Below, piece by piece: positions 1-15,306 of a stretch of DNA of 16,606 nucleotides (the first letter of the stretch is position 1; each line of letters starts with the position of its first letter). A model generated the notes under the pieces. The model searched no databases. It was not told where the DNA came from and worked only from the letters and a program-made list of their open reading frames with translations. Made by a program: the position numbers and the translations under genes. The DNA is from an uncultured delta proteobacterium (GTDB lineage Bacteria > Desulfobacterota > RBG-13-43-22). The stretch is taken from the NCBI GenBank assembly GCA_963802945.1, contig CAWDKY010000066.1, positions 1 through 16,606 of the forward strand. The letters are read 5' to 3'.

Positions 1-50
1 ACCTTACATGGTTCATGGCTGCCCTAAACGCAACGTAGTTTAGGGCGCCA
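1..50 (+). repeat. Copy 1 of a 50-bp double-hairpin repeat (probably truncated by the window start)
   Basis: accttacatggttcatggctgccctaaacgcaacgtagtttagggcgcca is identical to 447..496. It contains the perfect inverted repeat gccctaaac/gtttagggc (21-29/38-46). Confidence 0.95.
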
Positions 51-59
51 CTTAAAAGG

Positions 60-314
60 ATGTATTATTTATACATTTTTTTAAAAAGTCAATTGGATGG
101 GGAACTTTATATCGGATATACTGGAAATCTAAAAAATGGATTGCATCAACATCAAAATGGAGAAGTAAATTCGACAAAATCACGCCGCCCCCTTGAATTG
201 ATTTTTTATGAAGGCCATAGAAGTATGGTGGATGCAAAGTGGAGGGAAAGATATTTTAAAACCTCAAAAGGTAAGTCTTCCTTACGTTTGATGTTAAGAG
301 ATTCGTTGAAATGA
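60..314 (+). CDS. Stand-alone GIY-YIG nuclease family protein (84 aa)
   Basis: YYLYI...LYIGYTGNL...HQH.NG...STKSRRP.ELIFYE...A..RE.YFK..KG matches the short GIY-YIG pattern. The normally conserved Arg before L..H reads Gly here. Confidence 0.9.
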   Translation: MYYLYIFLKSQLDGELYIGYTGNLKNGLHQHQNGEVNSTKSRRPLELIFYEGHRSMVDAKWRERYFKTSKGKSSLRLMLRDSLK

Positions 315-350
315 TGTATTACCCTGATCGCTAACTGCTCACCCCAATAC

Positions 351-443
351 GGAGAGATGACCGAGTAGGCTTAAGGTGCTCGCCTGCTAAGCGAGTGTAG
401 GGGGAAACTTCTACCGAGGGTTCGAATCCCTCTCTCTCCGCCA
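351..443 (+). tRNA. tRNA-Ser (anticodon GCT)
   Basis: Acceptor stem GGAGAGA/TCTCTCC, anticodon arm ctcgc-ctGCTaa-gcgag, long variable arm, T arm gaggg-TTCGAAT-ccctc, discriminator G and encoded CCA. Confidence 0.97.
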
Positions 444-446
444 TGA

Positions 447-496
447 ACCTTACATGGTTCATGGCTGCCCTAAACGCAACGTAGTTTAGGGCGCCA
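447..496 (+). repeat. Copy 2 of the 50-bp double-hairpin repeat, attached to the tRNA 3' end
   Basis: Identical to 1..50. Hairpin 1 is gccatgaacc(440-449)/ggttcatggc(456-465) and includes the tRNA GCCA. Hairpin 2 is gccctaaac(467-475)/gtttagggc(484-492). The unit ends with CGCCA. Confidence 0.95.
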
Positions 497-672
497 TTTT
501 CCAGTTTGGATTTCCGCTTGCGGATTTTGGATTACACTCCCCTAACCCGAACAAGTCGGGGAAAAAATAATTTCCTCTTTCCTCGCCCTAATCCCTTATC
601 GTTATCATGAAAACAGGGCTAACATATCCGGCAGAAGATACAGATCCCCAAGCTTCTGTCATCAAGGGATTT

Positions 673-1385
673 TTATTTTTTTGAGGCTGTGTTTGGGCCA
701 GTTTTTCTTTGCAGATTTGAATATAATTTTTCAGTTTAGGGGGGTGGGAGGTGTCGGGAAACTGCTGAAGGATACCTTCAAACCTGCCCAGGGCGGCTTC
801 ATAATTTTTTCTGCTTAAAATAAAATTCTCCTATAAAAAATTCATGAGAGGCCAAGTTTTTTTTGGCGGTTATCAGATTGGATTGGGCTTGGGAAACATA
901 TTCGCTCCGGGGATAATTCTTAATCAATCGTTCAAATTCCTGAGCCGCCTGTAAAGCATAACTCTGGTCCCTGTCGATAGTGGGCATTTGTTTAAAGTAG
1001 CACATGGCCAGTTGAAAGACCACATAGGGGATGATTTCATTAGGGATGTAGTTTTTCAAATTCCTTATAGGCCGTGGCCGCCAACAGATATTCCTTATTT
1101 AAGAAATGACTGTCGGCCAATTTCAGTTCGGCGACGATCGCATAGGGATTGTAAGGAAAACGATCTTTTAAGTTTTGAAAGGCTTCCGCGGCCTTTTCAT
1201 ATTTTTTTCGCTGGTAGGCATCCAGGCCTTCCGGGATCAGGGCTTCGGGGGTTTTTTCCAGTTCTTTGGCTTCTTTACTTTTAAAATACCCGCAACTGAC
1301 CAGGGAGAATAAAAACCATACGATGATCAGCACAATCAGGCCGTATTTGCAAAAGGAACAGTTTAAAAAGCGGATTTTTTCTCAT
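673..1385 (-). CDS. bamD: Outer membrane protein assembly factor BamD (TPR lipoprotein), split by apparent indels; ends approximate
   Basis: Lipobox-like LVSC. Motifs KYEKAAEAFQNLKDRFPY..YA..AELKLADSHF, IDRDQS....A..EFERLIKNYP.SEY, LASHEFFIGEFYFK, and after a frameshift EAALGRFEGIL..FP. Joins ORFs 1040..1333 and 799..1059. Confidence 0.88.
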
Positions 1386-7658: not shown

Positions 7659-7673
7659 GGCAGCACAAAATAA

Positions 7674-7842
7674 TTAACAGTTTGCGGAAAAACTCATTTT
7701 TTACAGGTTGCTCAAAAAGATCCAGATACAAGGCGCCCGAAATTCTGAGGAATGAGGCGTACATAGAAGTACGTCGCAATGACGAAAAATGAGGGCAACC
7801 CGCCGTGGCGGGATAGATGGGCCTTTTTCAGCAACCTGTTAA
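7674..7842. mobile_element. Non-autonomous miniature inverted-repeat element (MITE-like)
   Basis: The right end (7823-7842) reverse-complements to ttaacaggttgctgaaaaag. It matches 7674-7692 at 17/19 and 7703-7719 at 16/17. Both outer ends are TTAA. No transposase is present. Confidence 0.7.
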
Positions 7843-9778: not shown

Positions 9779-10115
9779 TACAGGCAACAGCCCCCATGGC
9801 CCGGATGCAGCTTATGTGTCCTGACCAGTACCTGGGTTAACATGCACAGTGTCCAGATAACTCTTCTTGCGGCTTACACCTACAAGTCCACAAAAAACAT
9901 ACCCTCAAAAATTATCGATTACGGATGGAAAATATGCAATAGAAACTCACCGAATTCCACCACCCTCTTTGATGAAAGGATTGGCAAAAGTGGCCTGCCC
10001 CTTCCGCCAAGCCGGGTATTGTATCCCAAACCCCGAGTTTATATCAGCCTAATATATATATGACATGTCACCGTAAATTTACTGGCGAATGAGGATATGG
10101 GGATTTGTGCCAGGG

Positions 10116-12142
10116 TTAAGGTGTATTTATTTCTATTTTCTTTACAATATTATCCAACAAATAGACTATGTGTTTTGATATCTCATAACCCACGATATTT
10201 TTTTCAAATTCCTTGGGGGCTGATACGTTTATATTTTGTTGTAAGCCTTTCTTCCAGATAATATTATTTTTCTCATAAATTTTCACACCTGAGATTACAG
10301 AGCACTTGTAAGTAATTACATTGTTATCAATAGGAATGGCCTGTTTTTCAATTTTATATATTGCTTCAAGGCAATAATCGCTTTTTGTCTCGGAATTACG
10401 ATTTTTCTTAAAGCCAAATCCTCCTTCGTTAAGCCTTTGGATGTTATTTTTGAAATCTTCCCCCGGCATAAAAGGGAAACCTAAGTTCCCTTGAAACTAT
10501 AAATGGAACGAGTTGTTCGAAATCATCCAAAATCATAAATGCTCTACTGCAATTCATTTGAGCACATTTGTAATAGCTTTGTTTTATTCTCATAGTTCGT
10601 AATAATATCCATCGAAATAACTTTATCTCTAACTGAAGGTGCTGGATTTTTAGCTGATAGTGGCAAGATCGTGCTTGCTATTGCTGTATTTCCGCTTAAC
10701 GATATAACCTTTACATCCCAAGTAGGAATATAAATATCCTCATCTATTCCCTCCAGTTTACCAAACTTATAAAAGACGCTGATATTTTCTTCCGGCAAAA
10801 GAATACTATTCTGATCTTCAATATAGATTTGATTTCCATCTGTTTTACTAATAGAGGCTTCGACCTTATTAAACTTGACCTTATCAATAAAATCCGTTGA
10901 AAGCTTAACTATGACATTCTTAATAATCACTTCTTCCCCGGGCTTCATTGGAAAATCTTATGTCTCCAAATACTTCATCCGTTATCTCTTCATTCGCACA
11001 AGTACTAAATAGGACTCTTCCACTTCTATCCAATAATTCCCCACAAGCAATTACTTTATAGTTGTCATAGGATATATAAGGTTTAGTGGAAGGTAATTTC
11101 GAATATAATGGTCCTGCGAAATGAACTCTAAGGAAATAGTCGGGGATCTCCCGATTCTGTGTAATCTCCTGGGTTAGATGGGTCATTTCGACGACCGCTT
11201 TTTGGACATTATAAAAACTTTTGTCTAATGACATTAAAGAAAAAAGAAGCCTTTTTCCCCAGGGCGTTAATAAATAGTTGATAAATGACACTTTTCCGTA
11301 ACTGGGCTATCAAGCTTTTTAGTGGTATTGCTTAAGAGAAGGACTTTGGGCTTTTTAAGCTCATCCAGAGATTCGTTGGAAAACTTTATGAACTGAGAGT
11401 CATTCCTTTTCTCCCCCAAAAGGGCCTGGGCAATCGAAAATTTATTTGAAGAGTGGAGAACGGTAATTTGGGTGCCGTATTGATCAACCAAAATGTCCCC
11501 CTTTATTATTCCTGCCTCAGTCCCTTTATCCAAAATAAAATTATCATTCCAGTCTTTCTTGATTTCTGACCGGACTGAAAAAGGATTAAATTTTTCTTTA
11601 GAAGTTTGAATAATTTTTTTTATGAGTTCACTGTAAGTATCCTTATAAAGTTGTATAATTCTATTTTCTTTGTCTATGTTTCGAAAGTTCATGATCCGAT
11701 TGTTTAATTGTTTCATATCTCGCATAGTAGGTATAGGAATAGGAATAAAGGATTTCTCCAGTGACCATATTCGCAAAATTAATACTCATGGTTAGGGGGA
11801 GATAATAATCGATAAGCTTTTGAGATTTATCTATTTTGTATTGAGAAACCCTCTGGATATCAATCCAGACGACAAAGGTATTGTATTTATTTTTGTTGTC
11901 TAACATATCAACGACATTCGAGAAGTTTGCCTTAAAATTGTTGTTAAATTGATCGAGAGCATAGGATAAATTACTACCGAGGTCTCCGAAGAAAGTGCTT
12001 TTTTAAATAAATGGTTTTCGGTGGCTCTGTCCGAAAGGAAAATACCTTGGACTGGATAGACTTTAAAACTCTCTTGGGCGTAGGCAATTGACGAATATAT
12101 TAAACATATCAGCCCTGATAGGATAATCAGGGGTTTTTTCAT
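10116..12142 (-). CDS. Large exported hypothetical protein (about 670 aa if joined) with an FlgT C-terminal-like motif; split into six or more ORFs
   Basis: Signal peptide MKKPLIILSGLICLIYSSIAYA-QE. Consecutive, mostly overlapping minus-strand ORFs run down to 10116. Contains ILDKGTEAGIIKGDIL and INFANMVTGEILYS. The single-gene interpretation is an inference. Confidence 0.6.
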
Positions 12143-13609
12143 TTCTTTTGTTTCCCTTTTTGGGTTTTGTGCTTGCAACCGGATAAAACTTTACCTGATT
12201 CCCATCGACGGTATAATCATAATTACTAAACAAAGCAGCCAGTAGGAGCGGCTATTTCTGGGCAAATAGGGCATCGGCAAGAGGATCATTTCCGTTATAA
12301 GAAAGGATAAATTCGTATTTCCCGGGTTCAGCTGTCCTCGGTTTTACATTTGTGACCCCCTGAGTATTCTTAATAGTATTGGTGAACTGAATGCGGGCCA
12401 TGGGGGGAAAATTACAGGTCAAAATAACGACATATTCCATTCCATACATCTGCCTTTTTTTCCAGTAATCTTGGATCTTATTCGATATGACAAAGCCTAA
12501 ATTCTCACCAATCTTTTTCGCAACATTGGCCCGGCATTGGTCAGGCGAGTTTCCCGACGCCGATTCGGTCAAAGCCCCGGAAGCAATAGCCTCACTGTCG
12601 AGGGTTAAGTAAACTTTAAGAGCCACCATGCCATCGCACACAAATTTGTCTATGGATGGGTCCTTCCCCCTTTCCACAATAATCGAAGACCCTACACTAA
12701 AAAAATCAGCTTTTGCCTCGTCCCGTGAAAACTTGATATACTTAGCTAAGTCAGCACTATTTTCCAACTTATCAATAGTTATAGCCCGGTCATTAAAATA
12801 CTTGCTACGGAATAGGTCATTATCAAGAATCCTTATATCATATGTTTGATAAGCAGATTGTAATGCCTTAATCGTAAAATTCTGTTTGTCTGGGATATTA
12901 TTCTTCGGTTGATATACTTTAATGTTGGTGAAAAATTCATGTTCGTTATCTGAGGCATTTACAAAACTTCCATATTTGAGAGTGTTTTTTTTCAAAGAGG
13001 CTGCATCGACTGATCCTACCCCCTGTTCCTGAGCCGAAACGGCCTTTGATTTAATATTCTTTGTTGAAAGGGCCTCTCCTTCTTTATATTTAGCATCACG
13101 GTCAGACTTGTAAACAGTTATTTCTGTCAGAGGGGCCGAGGTTTGCAAATCGGAGGGGGTGGTAAAAAACTCGTCCATTAAAGTTATTATGGCGCTCGAA
13201 CGGACGACGGTTGTTCCTAATGCAATTCCCATGTCTGAAAGGAGTTGACGAAATTTTGTCTCGTCGAAGATCAACACTGTATTAACTATATAAATGTTCC
13301 CTTCTTTTCTAGCGGTATCATTTTGTTTGACTTTAAAGACATTAATTTGGGAAAGGACTTCTTCGAATTTTTGTTGTACTTTTTGGGTCATTCATTGCCT
13401 CCGGTCCGTAACAATCTATTTACGGCCATTGTCACCGCATTTCGTATCGCTTCTTTTTTGGCGTTGTATTGGACTGAGGCTATATCCTGGGTTATTTCCG
13501 CCCTCCCCTCCCCTTGTACTTCGATTTCAATAGCCAGCGCTGAATTGATAATAAAAAAGGAAACCACCCAGATCAGGGCAAATGGCAAAAACTTCGTTAA
13601 CCATTCCAT
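12140..13609 (-). CDS. Exported hypothetical protein with an FlgT N-terminal-like start and a TolB-N/CsgG-like middle (frameshifts near 13400 and 12260; 3' end approximate)
   Basis: AAGGAGG RBS and signal peptide ending ALA-IEIEVQGEGRA...AKKEAIRNAVTMAV. ORF 12252..13391 continues the protein, and another frame then gives LAALFSNYDYTVDGNQVKFYP. Confidence 0.65.
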
Positions 13610-13630
13610 TTTACTACCCTCCTTTAGCTT

Positions 13631-14193
13631 TTACTTTACTCTGATTTCGACATCCCCTGCCTTTATTGAATTTTCATCCGAATTAATCGATTTCCTTTTT
13701 GAACCCCTTTGGCCTTTATAATTAATCCCATATTTTCCAAGGAGTTCTCCAAAAGCATTCATTTTCCTTATCTCGGCGAGGTGGATGTCCGTGGTTAATA
13801 TTTCCTTGTTGTTGAAACCATTATGAAGGGCTTCGTCTAAAGTTTTCAAAGCTCCAAAGGTATCTCCCTTCATCGACTGCGCCTGAGCCTTAATATATAA
13901 ACAAATAGAGTCATTGGGGCGGCTTTTTCCGGCTTTCTCAGCATACTGAAGGGCCGTGTCGTAATCTTTCTGTACAGGGCTTTAATCGCTTCATAAAAAG
14001 AGTCATTATCAAAAGAGACATTTCCTTTGGTGGTGGCAGCAGGTTGGGAAACCATCGCTGTTTTACTGCTTAATTTAACTTCTTCCTTCGACGAAACCAT
14101 CTCCTTCACCCTGTCGCATGAGATGATAATGATAAAAATGGTGACTAACAGAGTGGGAAGTATAAATCTAAATTTATTGTGACCTATTTTCAT
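13631..14193 (-). CDS. Predicted lipoprotein with a TPR-like C-terminal region (frameshifted)
   Basis: MKIGHNKFRFILPTLLVTIFIIIIS-C signal. GDTFGALKTLDEALHNGF....L.TD..L..IR....F..LL resembles a TPR-capping motif. Confidence 0.65.
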
Positions 14194-14194
14194 T

Positions 14195-14929
14195 TTAATT
14201 TTTTAATTCAACCTCCTTCGCCGGTTCTGATGAGGATTTAGGTAAGGCCACTTCAATCTTCGCTTCCTGGGCTAGTTTAATTAAATTTCCTCCTAAATTA
14301 TATATTTTATCGATTTGGGACGGCAAATTGGAGGCGATGTCGGTAAGTTTAGTTGCATCCCCGGCAAAAGTTGCGGCAGTTGTGGGGTTAGCCTTTATTC
14401 CTTGGATTAACTGTTTAGATGTTTCGAGGGCTCCCTTATCCATCAACCCGGCCAAAAAGATATTATAAATTGCCTTCCCCAAGAGCTGTTTTTGCTCGTC
14501 GTTGAGGTTTTTAACCTTCTCGGCGGTCTCCTTTTGTTCTGTTGCTTTGTTGACTGCTACCATTTCATCTTGCCTTATTTTAATAATTTCAGCCTCTTTT
14601 TCTTTGGGGTCTTTTATACTTTCAATTTCCTTCATTCGTCTTTCGATTCGCTCTATATCTTCCTTATTTGCCAGCATTTTGAAAGTAATATCGACCGATT
14701 TTTTTAAAAGGGTGTCGGCTTGCGCAAGCAAATTATATACGTTGTCTATTCCTTCCCTTGACACGCTTGCTGTGCCCTTTTGAGATTCATCCTTAGACCC
14801 CCCTGGAACTGCTGACTTTAACTTATCAAAAGCTCCTCCATAAGCAATATTGGAACACAGAAAGATAACTATTAAGATAAAAGAACACCTCATCACCTGG
14901 GTAATAAATGGAACATTACGATTAGACAT
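14195..14929 (-). CDS. Exported, probably helical hypothetical protein (244 aa, intact)
   Basis: GAGGAG RBS, hydrophobic signal ending AYG-GAFDKLKSAVPGG, and an E/K-rich coiled-coil-like middle. The stop lies 1 nt from the next ATG. Confidence 0.8.
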   Translation of the reverse strand: MSNRNVPFITQVMRCSFILIVIFLCSNIAYGGAFDKLKSAVPGGSKDESQKGTASVSREGIDNVYNLLAQADTLLKKSVDITFKMLANKEDIERIERRMKEIESIKDPKEKEAEIIKIRQDEMVAVNKATEQKETAEKVKNLNDEQKQLLGKAIYNIFLAGLMDKGALETSKQLIQGIKANPTTAATFAGDATKLTDIASNLPSQIDKIYNLGGNLIKLAQEAKIEVALPKSSSEPAKEVELKN

Positions 14930-15013
14930 TACATTCTCCTCTCTTTAATTTATTTAATTTAATCTAATATGACCTGATATACACTGTTTTCAATCGTTTA
15001 ATATGATAATTAT

Positions 15014-15046
15014 AAAAAACCCCATCGCTCTGTTGAGAAATGGGGT
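15014..15046 (-). terminator. Intrinsic terminator-like hairpin upstream of the AT-rich operon
   Basis: Minus strand aaccccat-ttctcaacagagcg-atggggtt followed by a T run. Confidence 0.65.
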
Positions 15047-15306
15047 TCAATATTCTTCCATTGACGCTCCTTGATAAAAGGTTGCCAGCAAGAAAACATT
15101 TTAATTGGTTATAGGCTTTTTATAACTCAATTGCCAAAAAGTCAATAAAATTATCAGGTCTCTTTTCGTTGATTACCGTTTGTACTCTTCTGATTTTTTC
15201 AAAATCGAATTTTGCGGACTTCAGGAAGAAGTCACCATCAAACTTGACAATGCCTGTATAGTCAAATCCTGACTTTCACAGTTTCTCTATTCCTCGATGT
15301 AAGCGC

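Follow-up and report, generated by a model that had tools for sequence, protein, structure and literature searches.

A probable decaying selfish cassette, built from a small GIY-YIG nuclease gene and a double-hairpin module, at tRNA-Ser gene ends of an uncultured delta proteobacterium

The window analysed here, a stretch of 16,606 nucleotides that forms the entire contig C66 of an uncultured delta proteobacterium, probably carries at its left end a decaying copy of a selfish cassette that targets tRNA gene ends and combines a GIY-YIG nuclease with a hairpin element. The cassette would consist of two parts, a 53-nt double-hairpin module and a gene that lacks its own promoter and encodes a GIY-YIG nuclease of a single domain, about 83 amino acids long. 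A full cassette would be located behind tRNA-Ser(TGA), just off the contig, and a solo module behind the neighbouring tRNA-Ser(GCT).

All features discussed below lie on the forward (+) strand. The contig starts inside copy 1 of the module (1..50), which retains the rest of hairpin 1 (1-15) and hairpin 2 (16-50); the first 3 nt, TGA, are lost because the contig begins there. Copy 1 is followed by CTTAAAAGG and then by the ATG of the nuclease gene. This spacer (51..59) is 9 nt long, compared to 8-15 nt in relatives, and holds no convincing ribosome-binding site at normal spacing. The stand-alone single-domain GIY-YIG nuclease gene (60..314; 84 aa plus stop) is separated by a spacer of 36 nt (315..350), which is not conserved among related loci, from tRNA-Ser(GCT) with an encoded CCA (351..443; identified by ARAGORN and matching the Rfam tRNA model with 57.8 bits). 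The complete module copy 2 (444..496) starts at the first base 3' of the tRNA CCA. The original prediction described an identical 50-bp unit at 1-50 and 447-496, placed 3 nt after the CCA in the second copy and ending 9 nt before the nuclease ATG in the first. The match is exact and both distances are correct, with the tRNA ending at 443, copy 1 ending at 50 and the ATG at 60. The unit is part of a larger one: the true repeat is 53 nt long (444-496), as the TGA after the CCA belongs to the module. A repeat search of the window returns a two-copy family (1-66 and 447-512), of which the first 50 bases are identical, and a perfect 50-nt repeat within 16.6 kb is far beyond chance.

The module consists of two adjacent hairpins. 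In copy 2, hairpin 1 (444-461) has 6 bp and a loop at 450-455, and hairpin 2 (462-496) has 13 bp, a bulged T466 and a loop at 476-483. The fold has a free energy of -29.1 kcal/mol as RNA (z -6.0; none of 200 shuffles is as good) and of -17.1 kcal/mol as DNA (z -5.8). Both stems are maintained by compensatory changes. In an alignment of 23 modules, pairing is kept in 98.6% of the cells and 7 of the 19 pairs have undergone compensatory change, a level of covariation that is not reached by any of 500 shuffles, and slid controls are 32-42% paired. The corresponding covariance model, R1, scores copy 1 at 51.7 bits and copy 2 at 71.7 bits.

The first hairpin extends into the tRNA gene. A junction palindrome (440..465; 10-bp arms and a 6-nt loop) is formed by the last 4 nt of the tRNA (GCCA) together with the 5' arm of hairpin 1, which pair with the 3' arm followed by TGGC. 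Of 45 distinct related loci, 29 have a palindrome of this design, with outer 4 nt that covary with the tRNA end (GCCA/TGGC, GCCC/GGGC and ACCC/GGGT). The same 4 nt reappear after hairpin 2 at 15 of 37 loci, compared to a recurrence of 12% for other 4-mers. It had been noted originally that CGCCA ends both copy 2 and the tRNA (439-443), and this was likened to a target-site duplication. The shared ending is real, but CGCCA belongs to the conserved, base-paired portion of the module, and the reading as a duplication is not supported.

The window was also described as error-rich, and it is: neighbouring genes are frameshifted, and an alignment with contig C27 (88-90% identical) has 15 gap openings across 2.6 kb. 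In C27 these genes are free of the frameshifts that split the window's copies. It was asked whether faulty assembly produced the repeat at the contig start, through a repeat-induced false join or a collapsed end in a mixed-strain bin. The contig does begin inside the repeat and contains many frameshifts, and the bin is mixed, with a contamination of 6.7% and three versions of the locus (C27, C66 and C67). A BLAST search with the upstream region of the related genome G004 found no left continuation of C66 among the 72 contigs of the assembly, the only matches being to C27, C15, C66 and C67. Furthermore, a search of public sequencing runs with window 1-900 found no holder of the stretch, the best share of sampled words being 0.07 and probably due to the tRNA. 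An artefact is nevertheless highly improbable, as G004, a genome of the same genus that was assembled independently, has the same order in the interior of a long contig: tRNA-Ser(TGA), module, GIY-YIG gene, tRNA-Ser(GCT) and module, with 88% identity over window 10-520. About a dozen metagenome contigs also contain the module, the gene, a short spacer and tRNA-Ser(GCT). In G004 the orthologue of copy 1 follows tRNA-Ser(TGA), in agreement with the expectation that copy 1 is preceded by another tRNA, at the point where the window itself is cut.

The distribution of the module identifies it as a discrete insert, present or absent at the same site among relatives. Model R1 detects it in four of the 21 genomes of the family (the window's genome G000, G004, G010 and G011), all belonging to one genus, and finds no match in nine further genomes of that genus. 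Among the module-free genomes, tRNA-Ser(GCT) is present in 17 of 17 and tRNA-Ser(TGA) lies just upstream in 15 of the 16 checked. For the module-free members of the same genus, the tRNA-Ser(GCT) locus was read in eight of the nine, with the gene present in all eight and tRNA-Ser(TGA) upstream in seven. The tandem of tRNA-Ser(TGA) and tRNA-Ser(GCT) is conserved, also in relatives without the element, and tRNA-Ser(GCT) is a native gene of this tandem. In G005 the CCA of tRNA-Ser(GCT) runs straight into the sequence that corresponds to window base 497 onward, which equals the window minus exactly 53 nt, and the tRNA-Ser(GCT) site of G008 is likewise empty of the module. Both empty and filled tRNA-Ser sites, which the original prediction proposed to compare, are thereby found among relatives.

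The module is confined to the ends of tRNA-Ser genes. Of five plus-strand modules found in G000 (4.37 Mb), four lie directly 3' of a tRNA-Ser gene and one, copy 1, is truncated by the end of its contig. This bears out the predicted enrichment at tRNA ends. Solo modules occur in this genome behind tRNA-Ser(GCT) and tRNA-Ser(CGA), and G011 has an additional module 3' of tRNA-Ser(GGA). All located module copies follow tRNA-Ser genes in the genomes searched. Such a placement is also what would be expected of a host RNA element of the tRNA-Ser transcript, for example a 3' trailer acting in processing, in termination or as a 5' shield of the downstream mRNA, with the nuclease gene merely settling in tRNA operons as a safe and highly transcribed site. 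In line with a function in RNA, the module is always on the tRNA strand directly 3' of the CCA, and the loop of hairpin 1 has a single orientation in 55 of 56 distinct modules. Sense-strand mismatches are more often G-T than A-C (44 versus 13), a count that is biased by an alignment fitted to the RNA model. Copy 2 is followed by a T-rich stretch, and the ORF lacks a promoter of its own, with no promoter-like site on the + strand in window 1-350. However, an element required by the host would hardly be restricted to four of the 21 family genomes when the tRNA-Ser genes themselves are present in nearly all module-free ones, and G005 has the same flank without the module. Moreover, an intrinsic terminator scan calls none at 462-505 or 16-59, no T run follows copy 1 or the copy on C15, and a search against Rfam 15 returns no family for the module, only the tRNA itself and two sub-threshold opposite-strand matches over the tRNA. 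A processing signal would likewise not be expected to form tandem arrays, which reach five modules, or nested copies that contain tRNA fragments. A host RNA element is hence regarded as decidedly unlikely.

The two repeats had been noted to bracket the GIY-YIG gene and tRNA-Ser. A composite element that is bounded by the two repeats and carries tRNA-Ser(GCT) was considered and rejected, as the tandem exists without the element in relatives, the homology of C27 to the window begins at 349, at the tRNA, and a module lies 3' of the downstream tRNA-Ser(GCT) in only 6 of the 12 related loci that have this tRNA. A reading in terms of integrase-type att sites or a group I intron was set aside, the unit being 446 bp long with no recombinase and no Rfam intron match. 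The two copies are instead separate modules behind two adjacent tRNA-Ser genes. Their perfect identity had been taken to suggest recent copying or strong constraint, and the comparison with relatives agrees with recent copying. The two copies in G004 differ at 3 positions and have an unflipped hairpin-1 loop, whereas those in the window are identical and both have a flipped loop, as found in C27 at tRNA-Ser(GCT). The best reading is that one window module was recently copied over the other, which would account for their identity.

For the nuclease gene as well, relatives span every stage: an empty site (C27 and G005), an intact cassette (filled sites in C66 and G004), an internally deleted ORF (G011) and eroded remnants (G008 and G003). 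The filled site is not a simple interruption of the empty spacer of 94 nt, most of which is replaced. The right flanks vary in length and sequence among loci and give the cassette no definite right end.

The window protein matches PF01541 over residues 1-72 with 43.2 bits (cut-off 22.6; E 5.1e-11), and NCBIfam holds no family for it. The nearest relatives of solved structure are the UPF0213 proteins 1zg2 (E 2.9e-10) and 1ywl (E 1.8e-8), followed by SLX1 (E 1.4e-4). Members of the family are mostly 83-87 aa long, and the G004 orthologue is 86% identical to the window protein. Residues Y5, Y17, G19, H31 and E63, which include both tyrosines of the motif, its glycine and the conserved glutamate and presumably have catalytic roles as in other GIY-YIG nucleases, are invariant in 34 family members and present in the window protein. 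At position 27 the window protein has a glycine where at least 90% of the family, including the G004 orthologue, has an arginine; this conserved residue after the second motif presumably corresponds to the catalytic arginine of I-TevI. Other departures at nearly invariant positions are R61W and one extra residue (F7). Judged by the R27G replacement, the window nuclease has probably lost its activity, with the proviso that individual residues are uncertain in so error-rich a contig. Only one nuclease gene and five modules were found in G000, which implies that any activity is low.

Across phyla, members of the nuclease family are found in association with tRNA genes, and in the window's clade these are tRNA-Ser genes. 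A same-strand tRNA is located at most 350 nt upstream or 160 nt downstream at 62 of 80 metagenome loci, with truncated flanks at nine others. Of six close homologues in genome contigs, five adjoin tRNAs, compared to none of 15 distant GIY-YIG loci. Among the 35 nearest loci (63-74% identical), 33 have a tRNA-Ser gene or fragment, representing four isoacceptors, and the other two are at contig ends. The tRNA type appears to differ from one nuclease clade to another: mapped on the protein tree, the tRNA-type labels change 26 times compared to a mean of 43.9 for shuffled labels, and none of 200 shuffles reaches this value, although the tree is based on 83 columns with 37 of 76 forks unresolved and the clustering can partly reflect vertical descent.

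The association extends to the hairpins. Wherever the upstream sequence of a Ser-clade ORF could be read far enough, one or more modules precede the ORF, and tandem arrays comprise one to five modules. Modules of the same design accompany more distant nuclease clades at other tRNAs in other phyla, and the prediction that nuclease homologues would have similar flanking hairpins is confirmed by homologue loci in Thermodesulfobacteriota and Patescibacteria. Nested forms with tRNA 3' fragments and cut-off gene starts occur at L054, L066/67, L070 and L087, and the duplicated tRNA fragments of nested copies begin in the T arm at L054 and L087. A collection of phage genomes yielded only 5 weak matches (35-41% identity), and phage and plasmid collections together, which hold few environmental taxa, gave weak matches only (33-41% identity) and no sign of carriage of the clade.

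Alternatively, the module might be moved or copied among tRNA-Ser genes by means other than this nuclease, such as gene conversion, replication slippage at palindromes or another enzyme, and the GIY-YIG gene would then be an independent homing gene at the same tRNA ends. Solo modules without the gene occur at tRNA-Ser(GCT) and tRNA-Ser(CGA) in G000 and in G010, where no nuclease homologue was found (genome 85% complete); the latter case indicates that modules persist, or move, without the gene. The window nuclease looks defective, yet the two modules are identical, and at L066/L067 a different GIY-YIG family with different hairpins occupies the same tRNA. These observations are offset by the consistent presence of modules upstream of Ser-clade ORFs and by the recurrence of the same hairpin design with distant nuclease clades at other tRNAs in other phyla. 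Furthermore, within the family, modules are restricted to the genus in which the gene or remnants of it occur, and a precise gain of 53 nt without right-side homology is not simple gene conversion. Mobility independent of the nuclease is on this evidence considered unlikely.

Returning to the preferred reading of a selfish cassette, we infer that the nuclease moves the module. The nuclease gene would be transcribed together with the tRNAs, and its product may recognise the folded single-stranded module or the tRNA-end junction, much as its distant relative SsnA acts with hairpin repeats. Cuts by the enzyme would cause the module and the gene to be copied to further tRNA-Ser ends. This would proceed either by homing, with repair from a filled copy as for SegB of phage T4, or by cut-and-rejoin of the module beside a stem ending in GCCA. 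As the module itself ends in a GCCA-type stem, it would recreate its own target, which would explain the tandem arrays.

Among published systems, the pairing of Ssn nucleases with hairpin repeats comes closer than REP/RAYT. Ssn nucleases (SsnA of Neisseria meningitidis; CDD cd10448) are associated with NTS/SRM hairpin repeats and cleave single-stranded DNA site-specifically near hairpins (Chenal et al., Nat Commun 2025, PMC11893778). Similar to Ssn, the nuclease described here is small, consists of a single GIY-YIG domain and has its own hairpin-forming repeat in the flanks of its gene. An hhalign comparison of the window family with the gonococcal ssnA homologue gives a probability of 97.3% (E 2.1e-11; 35% identity over 69 columns; BLASTP 33%), and the family is no closer to this homologue than to the UPF0213 proteins. 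In contrast to Ssn, for which the paper describes hundreds of repeats and makes no mention of tRNA (PMC11893778), five modules are found per genome here, and they are anchored to the tRNA CCA end as a double hairpin of which the first palindrome includes the tRNA end. The module also differs in lacking the SRM motif: the degenerate motif given in that paper matches nowhere in window 1-700 or in the flanks of 35 related loci, compared to 8 matches in 2.2 kb at the gonococcal ssnA locus, which served as a positive control.

A second parallel is the homing endonuclease SegB, a free-standing GIY-YIG enzyme that phage T4 encodes within its tRNA gene cluster and that recognises a site including the T-psi-C stem-loop motif conserved in tRNA genes (Brok-Volchanskaya et al., NAR 2008, PMC2330249). 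In both systems a free-standing GIY-YIG gene lies among tRNA genes and is found in some relatives but not in others, and the T-psi-C site of SegB is matched here by duplicated tRNA fragments that start in the T arm (L054 and L087). They differ in that the host is a bacterial chromosome and not a phage, and no hairpin module is reported for SegB. The window protein is also much reduced in comparison: its 84 aa make up a catalytic domain only (Pfam residues 1-72), unlike enzymes of the Seg type, which have a separate DNA-binding part. In size and single-domain architecture it resembles the UPF0213/YhbQ-type proteins (1zg2, BH0048; 1ywl, EF2693) and the Slx1 nuclease domain. The UPF0213/YhbQ-type proteins are encoded by housekeeping-type or uncharacterised genes, for which we know of no tRNA linkage or cognate hairpin. 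A full-text search on UPF0213, YhbQ and COG2827, judged by title and abstract, returned no paper on the subject of tRNA-linked nucleases and hairpins.

The analogy with REP/RAYT that had been proposed originally is not upheld, as the modules number only 5 in 4.37 Mb and are located at tRNA-Ser ends, or in the case of copy 1 at the contig end, instead of being scattered through the genome like REPs, and as the enzyme is a GIY-YIG nuclease and not an HUH/Y1 transposase. GIY-YIG nucleases hydrolyse DNA, and no covalent rejoining of DNA by them is known to us, so that a transposase-like role would need host factors. What the cassette does share with REP/RAYT and IS200/IS605 is a nuclease gene beside the hairpin repeats that are presumed to be its substrate, and insertion beside a short specific sequence with no obvious duplication. 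In IS608 a guide pairs with the cleavage-site tetranucleotide, and the TGGC at the hairpin foot, which is complementary to GCCA at both borders, recalls this pairing. A bolder scheme, to which only a rather low probability is attached, takes the likeness literally. The 53-nt module would then be a minimal mobile element that moves as single-stranded DNA, with the GIY-YIG enzyme cutting after GCCA at both borders and the TGGC beside the foot of hairpin 1 pairing with either GCCA as a guide. The module would be pasted behind any acceptor-stem-like helix ending in GCCA, such as a tRNA CCA end, amounting to nuclease-only, guide-directed transposition to the ends of tRNA genes. Such pasting could equally occur behind the module's own 3' end and would also explain the tandem arrays.

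A full-text literature search, with subscription journals outside its scope, found no published account of miniature bacterial GIY-YIG genes linked to tRNAs and to hairpin modules. Taken alone, the window is a modest result, a decaying copy with two recently homogenised modules. If the preferred reading of a selfish cassette is true, one of the smallest selfish elements known, about 320 bp long and made up of one hairpin module and one catalytic domain, resides at the ends of tRNA genes in many uncultured bacteria. The pairing of nuclease and hairpin known from Ssn would be extended to a tRNA-anchored form, and the enzymes could offer programmable, structure-guided cutting of single-stranded DNA. 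The cassette would also explain several oddities in the annotation of metagenome-assembled genomes near tRNA genes, namely duplicated tRNA ends, palindromes after the CCA and tiny 'excinuclease-like' ORFs.

The left end of contig C66, which is the window in its entirety, carries what is probably a selfish element, a variant of the known pairing between a GIY-YIG nuclease gene and its own hairpin repeat. The nuclease is encoded by an 84-aa ORF at 60–314 with a GIY-YIG domain (PF01541, E 5.1e-11), and a tRNA gene search places a tRNA-Ser(GCT) gene at 351–443. As originally described, positions 1–50 and 447–496 are identical; copy 2 begins 3 nt past the tRNA CCA, a gap of 9 nt separates the end of copy 1 from the ATG, and CGCCA is the terminal sequence of tRNA and repeat alike. 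The complete unit, here called the module, measures 53 nt (444–496) and takes in the 3 nt that separate copy 2 from the CCA; in copy 1 these 3 nt are missing solely because the contig boundary cuts them off. The module folds as two hairpins, both as RNA (−29.1 kcal/mol, z −6.0) and as DNA (−17.1 kcal/mol, z −5.8), and this fold is matched by none of 200 shuffles. The left flank of copy 1 is not present on any other contig of the bin, and no public sequencing run with this stretch was found. In G004, a genome of the same genus, an internal part of a long contig is 88% identical to window positions 10–520 and has the order tRNA-Ser(TGA), module, 11 nt, GIY-YIG gene, 35 nt, tRNA-Ser(GCT) and module. 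The order in the related genome G011 is the same, with the gene cut down to its first 15 and last ~55 bases. In the nearest relatives, another tRNA thus does precede this copy, as had been expected. That the repeat is an assembly artefact is unlikely, as G004 and metagenome contigs show the same layout.

Among the 50 tRNA genes of the bin, the module occurs only behind tRNA-Ser(GCT), in three versions, and tRNA-Ser(CGA); inspection of these genes revealed no module behind tRNA-Ser(GGA) and the tRNA-Ser(TGA) of C27, another contig of the bin. A covariance model built from 23 modules finds five plus-strand sites in the genome, which are the tRNA-Ser-end modules and the cut copy 1. Over 21 genomes of the family, this model detects the module only in four (the bin itself, G000, together with G004, G010 and G011), all of one genus, and gives no hit in nine other genomes of that genus. 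The tRNA-Ser(GCT) locus was read in eight of these nine congeners; the tRNA gene is present in all eight, with tRNA-Ser(TGA) just upstream in seven. In G005, the CCA of tRNA-Ser(GCT) is followed at once by the window's post-module sequence, equalling the window minus exactly 53 nt, and the corresponding site in G008 is also empty. Between the two tRNA-Ser genes, the spacer of C27 and G005 is 94 nt of unrelated sequence, the 65-nt spacer of G008 starts like hairpin 1 and ends like the post-ORF stretch of G004, and G003 has eroded hairpins and no gene. At the level of sequence comparison, the relatives together form a series of empty, filled, deleted and eroded sites, the module is shown to be a discrete, patchy insert at tRNA-Ser ends, and the cassette is shown to pass through a cycle of gain and decay.

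In the alignment of the 23 modules, standard pairs are found in 98.6% of the cells and 7 of the 19 pairs display changes on both sides. None of 500 shuffles reaches any of five measures of module pairing, and pairing falls to 32–42% when the partners are slid as a control. Judged from this alignment, the module structure is under selection. Hairpin 1 is the inner part of a longer palindrome across the tRNA/module junction, in which GCCA of the tRNA end (440–443) plus the six-base 5' arm is the exact reverse complement of the 3' arm plus TGGC (456–465). Of 45 distinct related loci that have a tRNA shortly upstream, 38 contain a perfect junction palindrome of at least 8 bp, and its left arm extends at least 3 nt into the tRNA in 29 of the 45. 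The far arm covaries with the tRNA end (GCCA/TGGC, GCCC/GGGC, ACCC/GGGT and GCCG/CGGC). Furthermore, the last four bases of the tRNA recur directly after hairpin 2 in 15 of 37 loci, compared to 12% of trials for other 4-mers, so that TGGC can pair with either border. This recurrence is mostly seen in the Ser clade, the clade of the window's nuclease at tRNA-Ser, plus one locus each at tRNA-Asp, tRNA-Arg and tRNA-Asn; the third copy of the four bases is missing in most tRNA-Asn loci. The CGCCA had been taken for a target duplication. It is indeed shared, and the palindrome and the recurrence of the tRNA-end bases make the terminal CGCCA a conserved, paired part of the module, which may have arisen by duplication.

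The GIY-YIG gene is single-copy in the bin and, among the 21 family genomes, has a close orthologue only in G004 (86% identity). Other GIY-YIG genes in these genomes are 29–40% identical, with no tRNA near any of their 14 scanned loci. Worldwide, at least 142 homologues of 46–147 aa were found, up to 83–90% identical and some of them from Patescibacteria. On genome contigs, five of six homologues (45–85% identity) adjoin tRNA genes, and upstream of them the same two-hairpin design starts from the tRNA end with different sequences. A same-strand tRNA lies within 350 nt upstream or 160 nt downstream in 62 of 80 metagenome loci; the flanks are cut in nine further loci, and nine with full flanks have no tRNA in range, two of which (L066 and L067) have one further up, separated from the gene by another GIY-YIG cassette of a different kind. 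A tRNA-Ser gene or fragment (anticodon GGA, TGA, CGA or GCT) is found in 33 of the 35 nearest loci (63–74% identical), with one to five modules between tRNA and ATG, and the other two are at contig ends. More distant loci are located at tRNA-Asn, Asp, Arg, Gly, Lys, Trp or Glu, or just upstream of tRNA-Leu. A protein tree of 79 rows and 83 columns, obtained after removing five duplicates and two rows with stops or short matches, is poorly resolved and pairs the window nuclease with that of G004 (support 99/95). The tRNA-type labels require 26 changes on this tree, a value attained in 0 of 200 shuffles (mean 43.9), and host kinship can produce part of this clustering. The loci compared here show a nuclease family that is bound to tRNA genes and to hairpin inserts across phyla.

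Repeated insertion is suggested by module numbers that differ between near-identical contigs (L081 vs L082, L066 vs L067) and by several nested loci. In L087/L088, a module behind tRNA-Ser(TGA) is followed by the ORF's first 42 bases, by 28 nt of a tRNA that begin in the T stem and are unlike the resident tRNA, and then by another module and the full ORF. Locus L070 has a truncated ORF start, behind which a new module and a further ORF stand, and in L054 two sets of three modules precede the ORF, with an unrelated stretch and an 18-nt tRNA 3' fragment, in this order, between the sets. Among the best 150 hits of the covariance model over 86 loci, 95 are on the gene strand, and 50 of the 55 on the minus strand are shadows of stronger hits on the plus strand. 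These 95 start directly behind a tRNA (41), behind another module (17) or behind a tRNA 3' fragment or other stem ending in CCA (12); the remaining 25 are of other kinds, many still with CCA before them. A role of the hairpins in host RNA fits these data in part, as it agrees with the conservation of hairpin strand and loop, but is at odds with the patchy distribution, the precise empty site, the arrays and the nested copies. Two further arrangements were observed. In L066 (834–1310) and L067 (956–1430), another small GIY-YIG gene, unrelated to the first and accompanied by different hairpins of its own, lies between tRNA-Ser(GGA) and the studied cassette, followed by a duplicated tRNA 3' end, so that two nuclease families are stacked at one tRNA. 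In a tRNA-Leu(CAA) subfamily (L055, L100, L111, L116, L119 and L132), the module is preceded by a copy of the tRNA 5'-part, up to the anticodon loop, and a complete tRNA-Leu lies 7–22 nt behind the ORF (124 nt in L055), which looks as if the cassette entered the gene, bringing a replacement.

Where it could be tested, the original prediction of a tRNA-end repeat that the adjacent nuclease may spread finds support. A profile comparison with a gonococcal ssnA homologue, identified through 8 flanking SRM hairpins (the Ssn repeat motif), gives 97.3% probability at 35% identity and shows the family to be homologous to the Ssn nucleases. The Neisseria gonorrhoeae record in question (L162) is filed as a plasmid and has the size of a chromosome (2.17 Mb); its ssnA homologue is unannotated, has 8 SRM/NTS hairpins in 2.2 kb and no ATG, GTG or TTG at the family's usual start. 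Published work shows Ssn enzymes to be single-domain proteins that cleave single-stranded DNA at sites set by hairpin repeats flanking their genes (PMC11893778). The present element likewise combines a nuclease with hairpin repeats, but lacks features that define the Ssn systems, as the SRM motif is not present and module copies are few. It shares a free-standing gene with the Seg-type homing genes in tRNA clusters, whereas their DNA-binding domain, likewise a defining feature, is absent. REP/RAYT was rejected because its enzyme belongs to another class and because the present repeats are not scattered over the genome. Full-text literature searches turned up no account of mini GIY-YIG genes paired with hairpin modules at tRNA ends.

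As a promoter scan found no promoter-like site of the ORF's own on the plus strand, the ORF would probably be transcribed together with the tRNA genes. By analogy with Ssn, the nuclease may read the folded junction or the module. Spread could occur by homing, in which an empty tRNA end would be cut and repaired from a filled copy. This route fits the tRNA fragments in nested copies and the site of SegB, a phage T4 GIY-YIG homing endonuclease, which is reported to include the T-psi-C motif (PMC2330249). Alternatively, the module might be cut and rejoined beside GCCA-ended stems with the help of host enzymes, which would account for the solo modules and tandem arrays as well as for the complementarity of TGGC and GCCA. 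For this second route, we know of no rejoining chemistry.

The bin comprises 72 contigs and 4.37 Mb with 6.7% contamination. C66 is a second version of part of C27 (90% identical), the match beginning at window position 349, two bases 5' of the tRNA, and contig C67 is a third version of the locus; the bin is therefore a mix of related populations. Genes near the locus are broken by frameshifts in C66 and not in C27, with 15 gap openings in 2.6 kb, which agrees with the earlier description of the sequence as error-rich and calls for caution with single residues. Compared to 33 homologues, the window protein carries the substitutions R27G and R61W, has H at a position that is mostly Y, and contains one additional residue in a T/A run. 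Each arginine is R in at least 90% of the family and both are kept in G004; we take R27 to be the catalytic arginine of GIY-YIG enzymes. The window's nuclease copy is probably inactive, and errors in C66 may account for these residues. It is possible that the module is mobilised by another agent, as a module is present in G010, where no gene was detected, and the gene in the window appears to be dead.

Three positions distinguish the two modules of G004, whereas the window's two are identical. In 55 of 56 distinct modules elsewhere, the hairpin 1 loop points the same way; the flipped orientation is seen in both copies of the window and in the module behind tRNA-Ser(GCT) in C27 and C67, and not in G004, G010, G011 and contig C15 of the bin. 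In the simplest account, the flip would have occurred in the module behind tRNA-Ser(GCT) in the ancestor shared by C66 and C27, and in the C66 line this flipped module would later have overwritten the one beside the nuclease gene. The flip common to both identical modules lends support to the recent copying suggested previously. This copy of the cassette is probably decaying.

Several minor features of the window were also observed. On the minus strand at 802–2399, frameshifts break up two adjacent genes, dividing a 255-aa ORF in two and a 336-aa ORF in three; the counterparts on C27 (88–90% identical) are whole, and the split forms are either assembly errors or pseudogenes. A MITE-like repeat of ~170 nt (7672–7842), with inverted ends at 7700–7724 and 7818–7842 that are 84% complementary, has dozens of matches (70–90% identity) spread over at least 20 of the bin's contigs and is missing from the same site in C67, where the alignment skips from 7677 to 7839. 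A 5.5-kb stretch (9803–15289) is present in C66 and C27, not in C67, and is flanked on both sides by short repeats (9816–9936 and 15012–15284) found on many other contigs; the pattern suggests an insertion/deletion polymorphism between populations binned together. Irregular runs of GGATTT/CGGATT-like units at 497–540 also occur 3' of tRNA-Ser(GGA) on contig C24 and of tRNA-Gln genes on contigs C29 and C33, and such runs trail several tRNA genes in the bin and in relatives.
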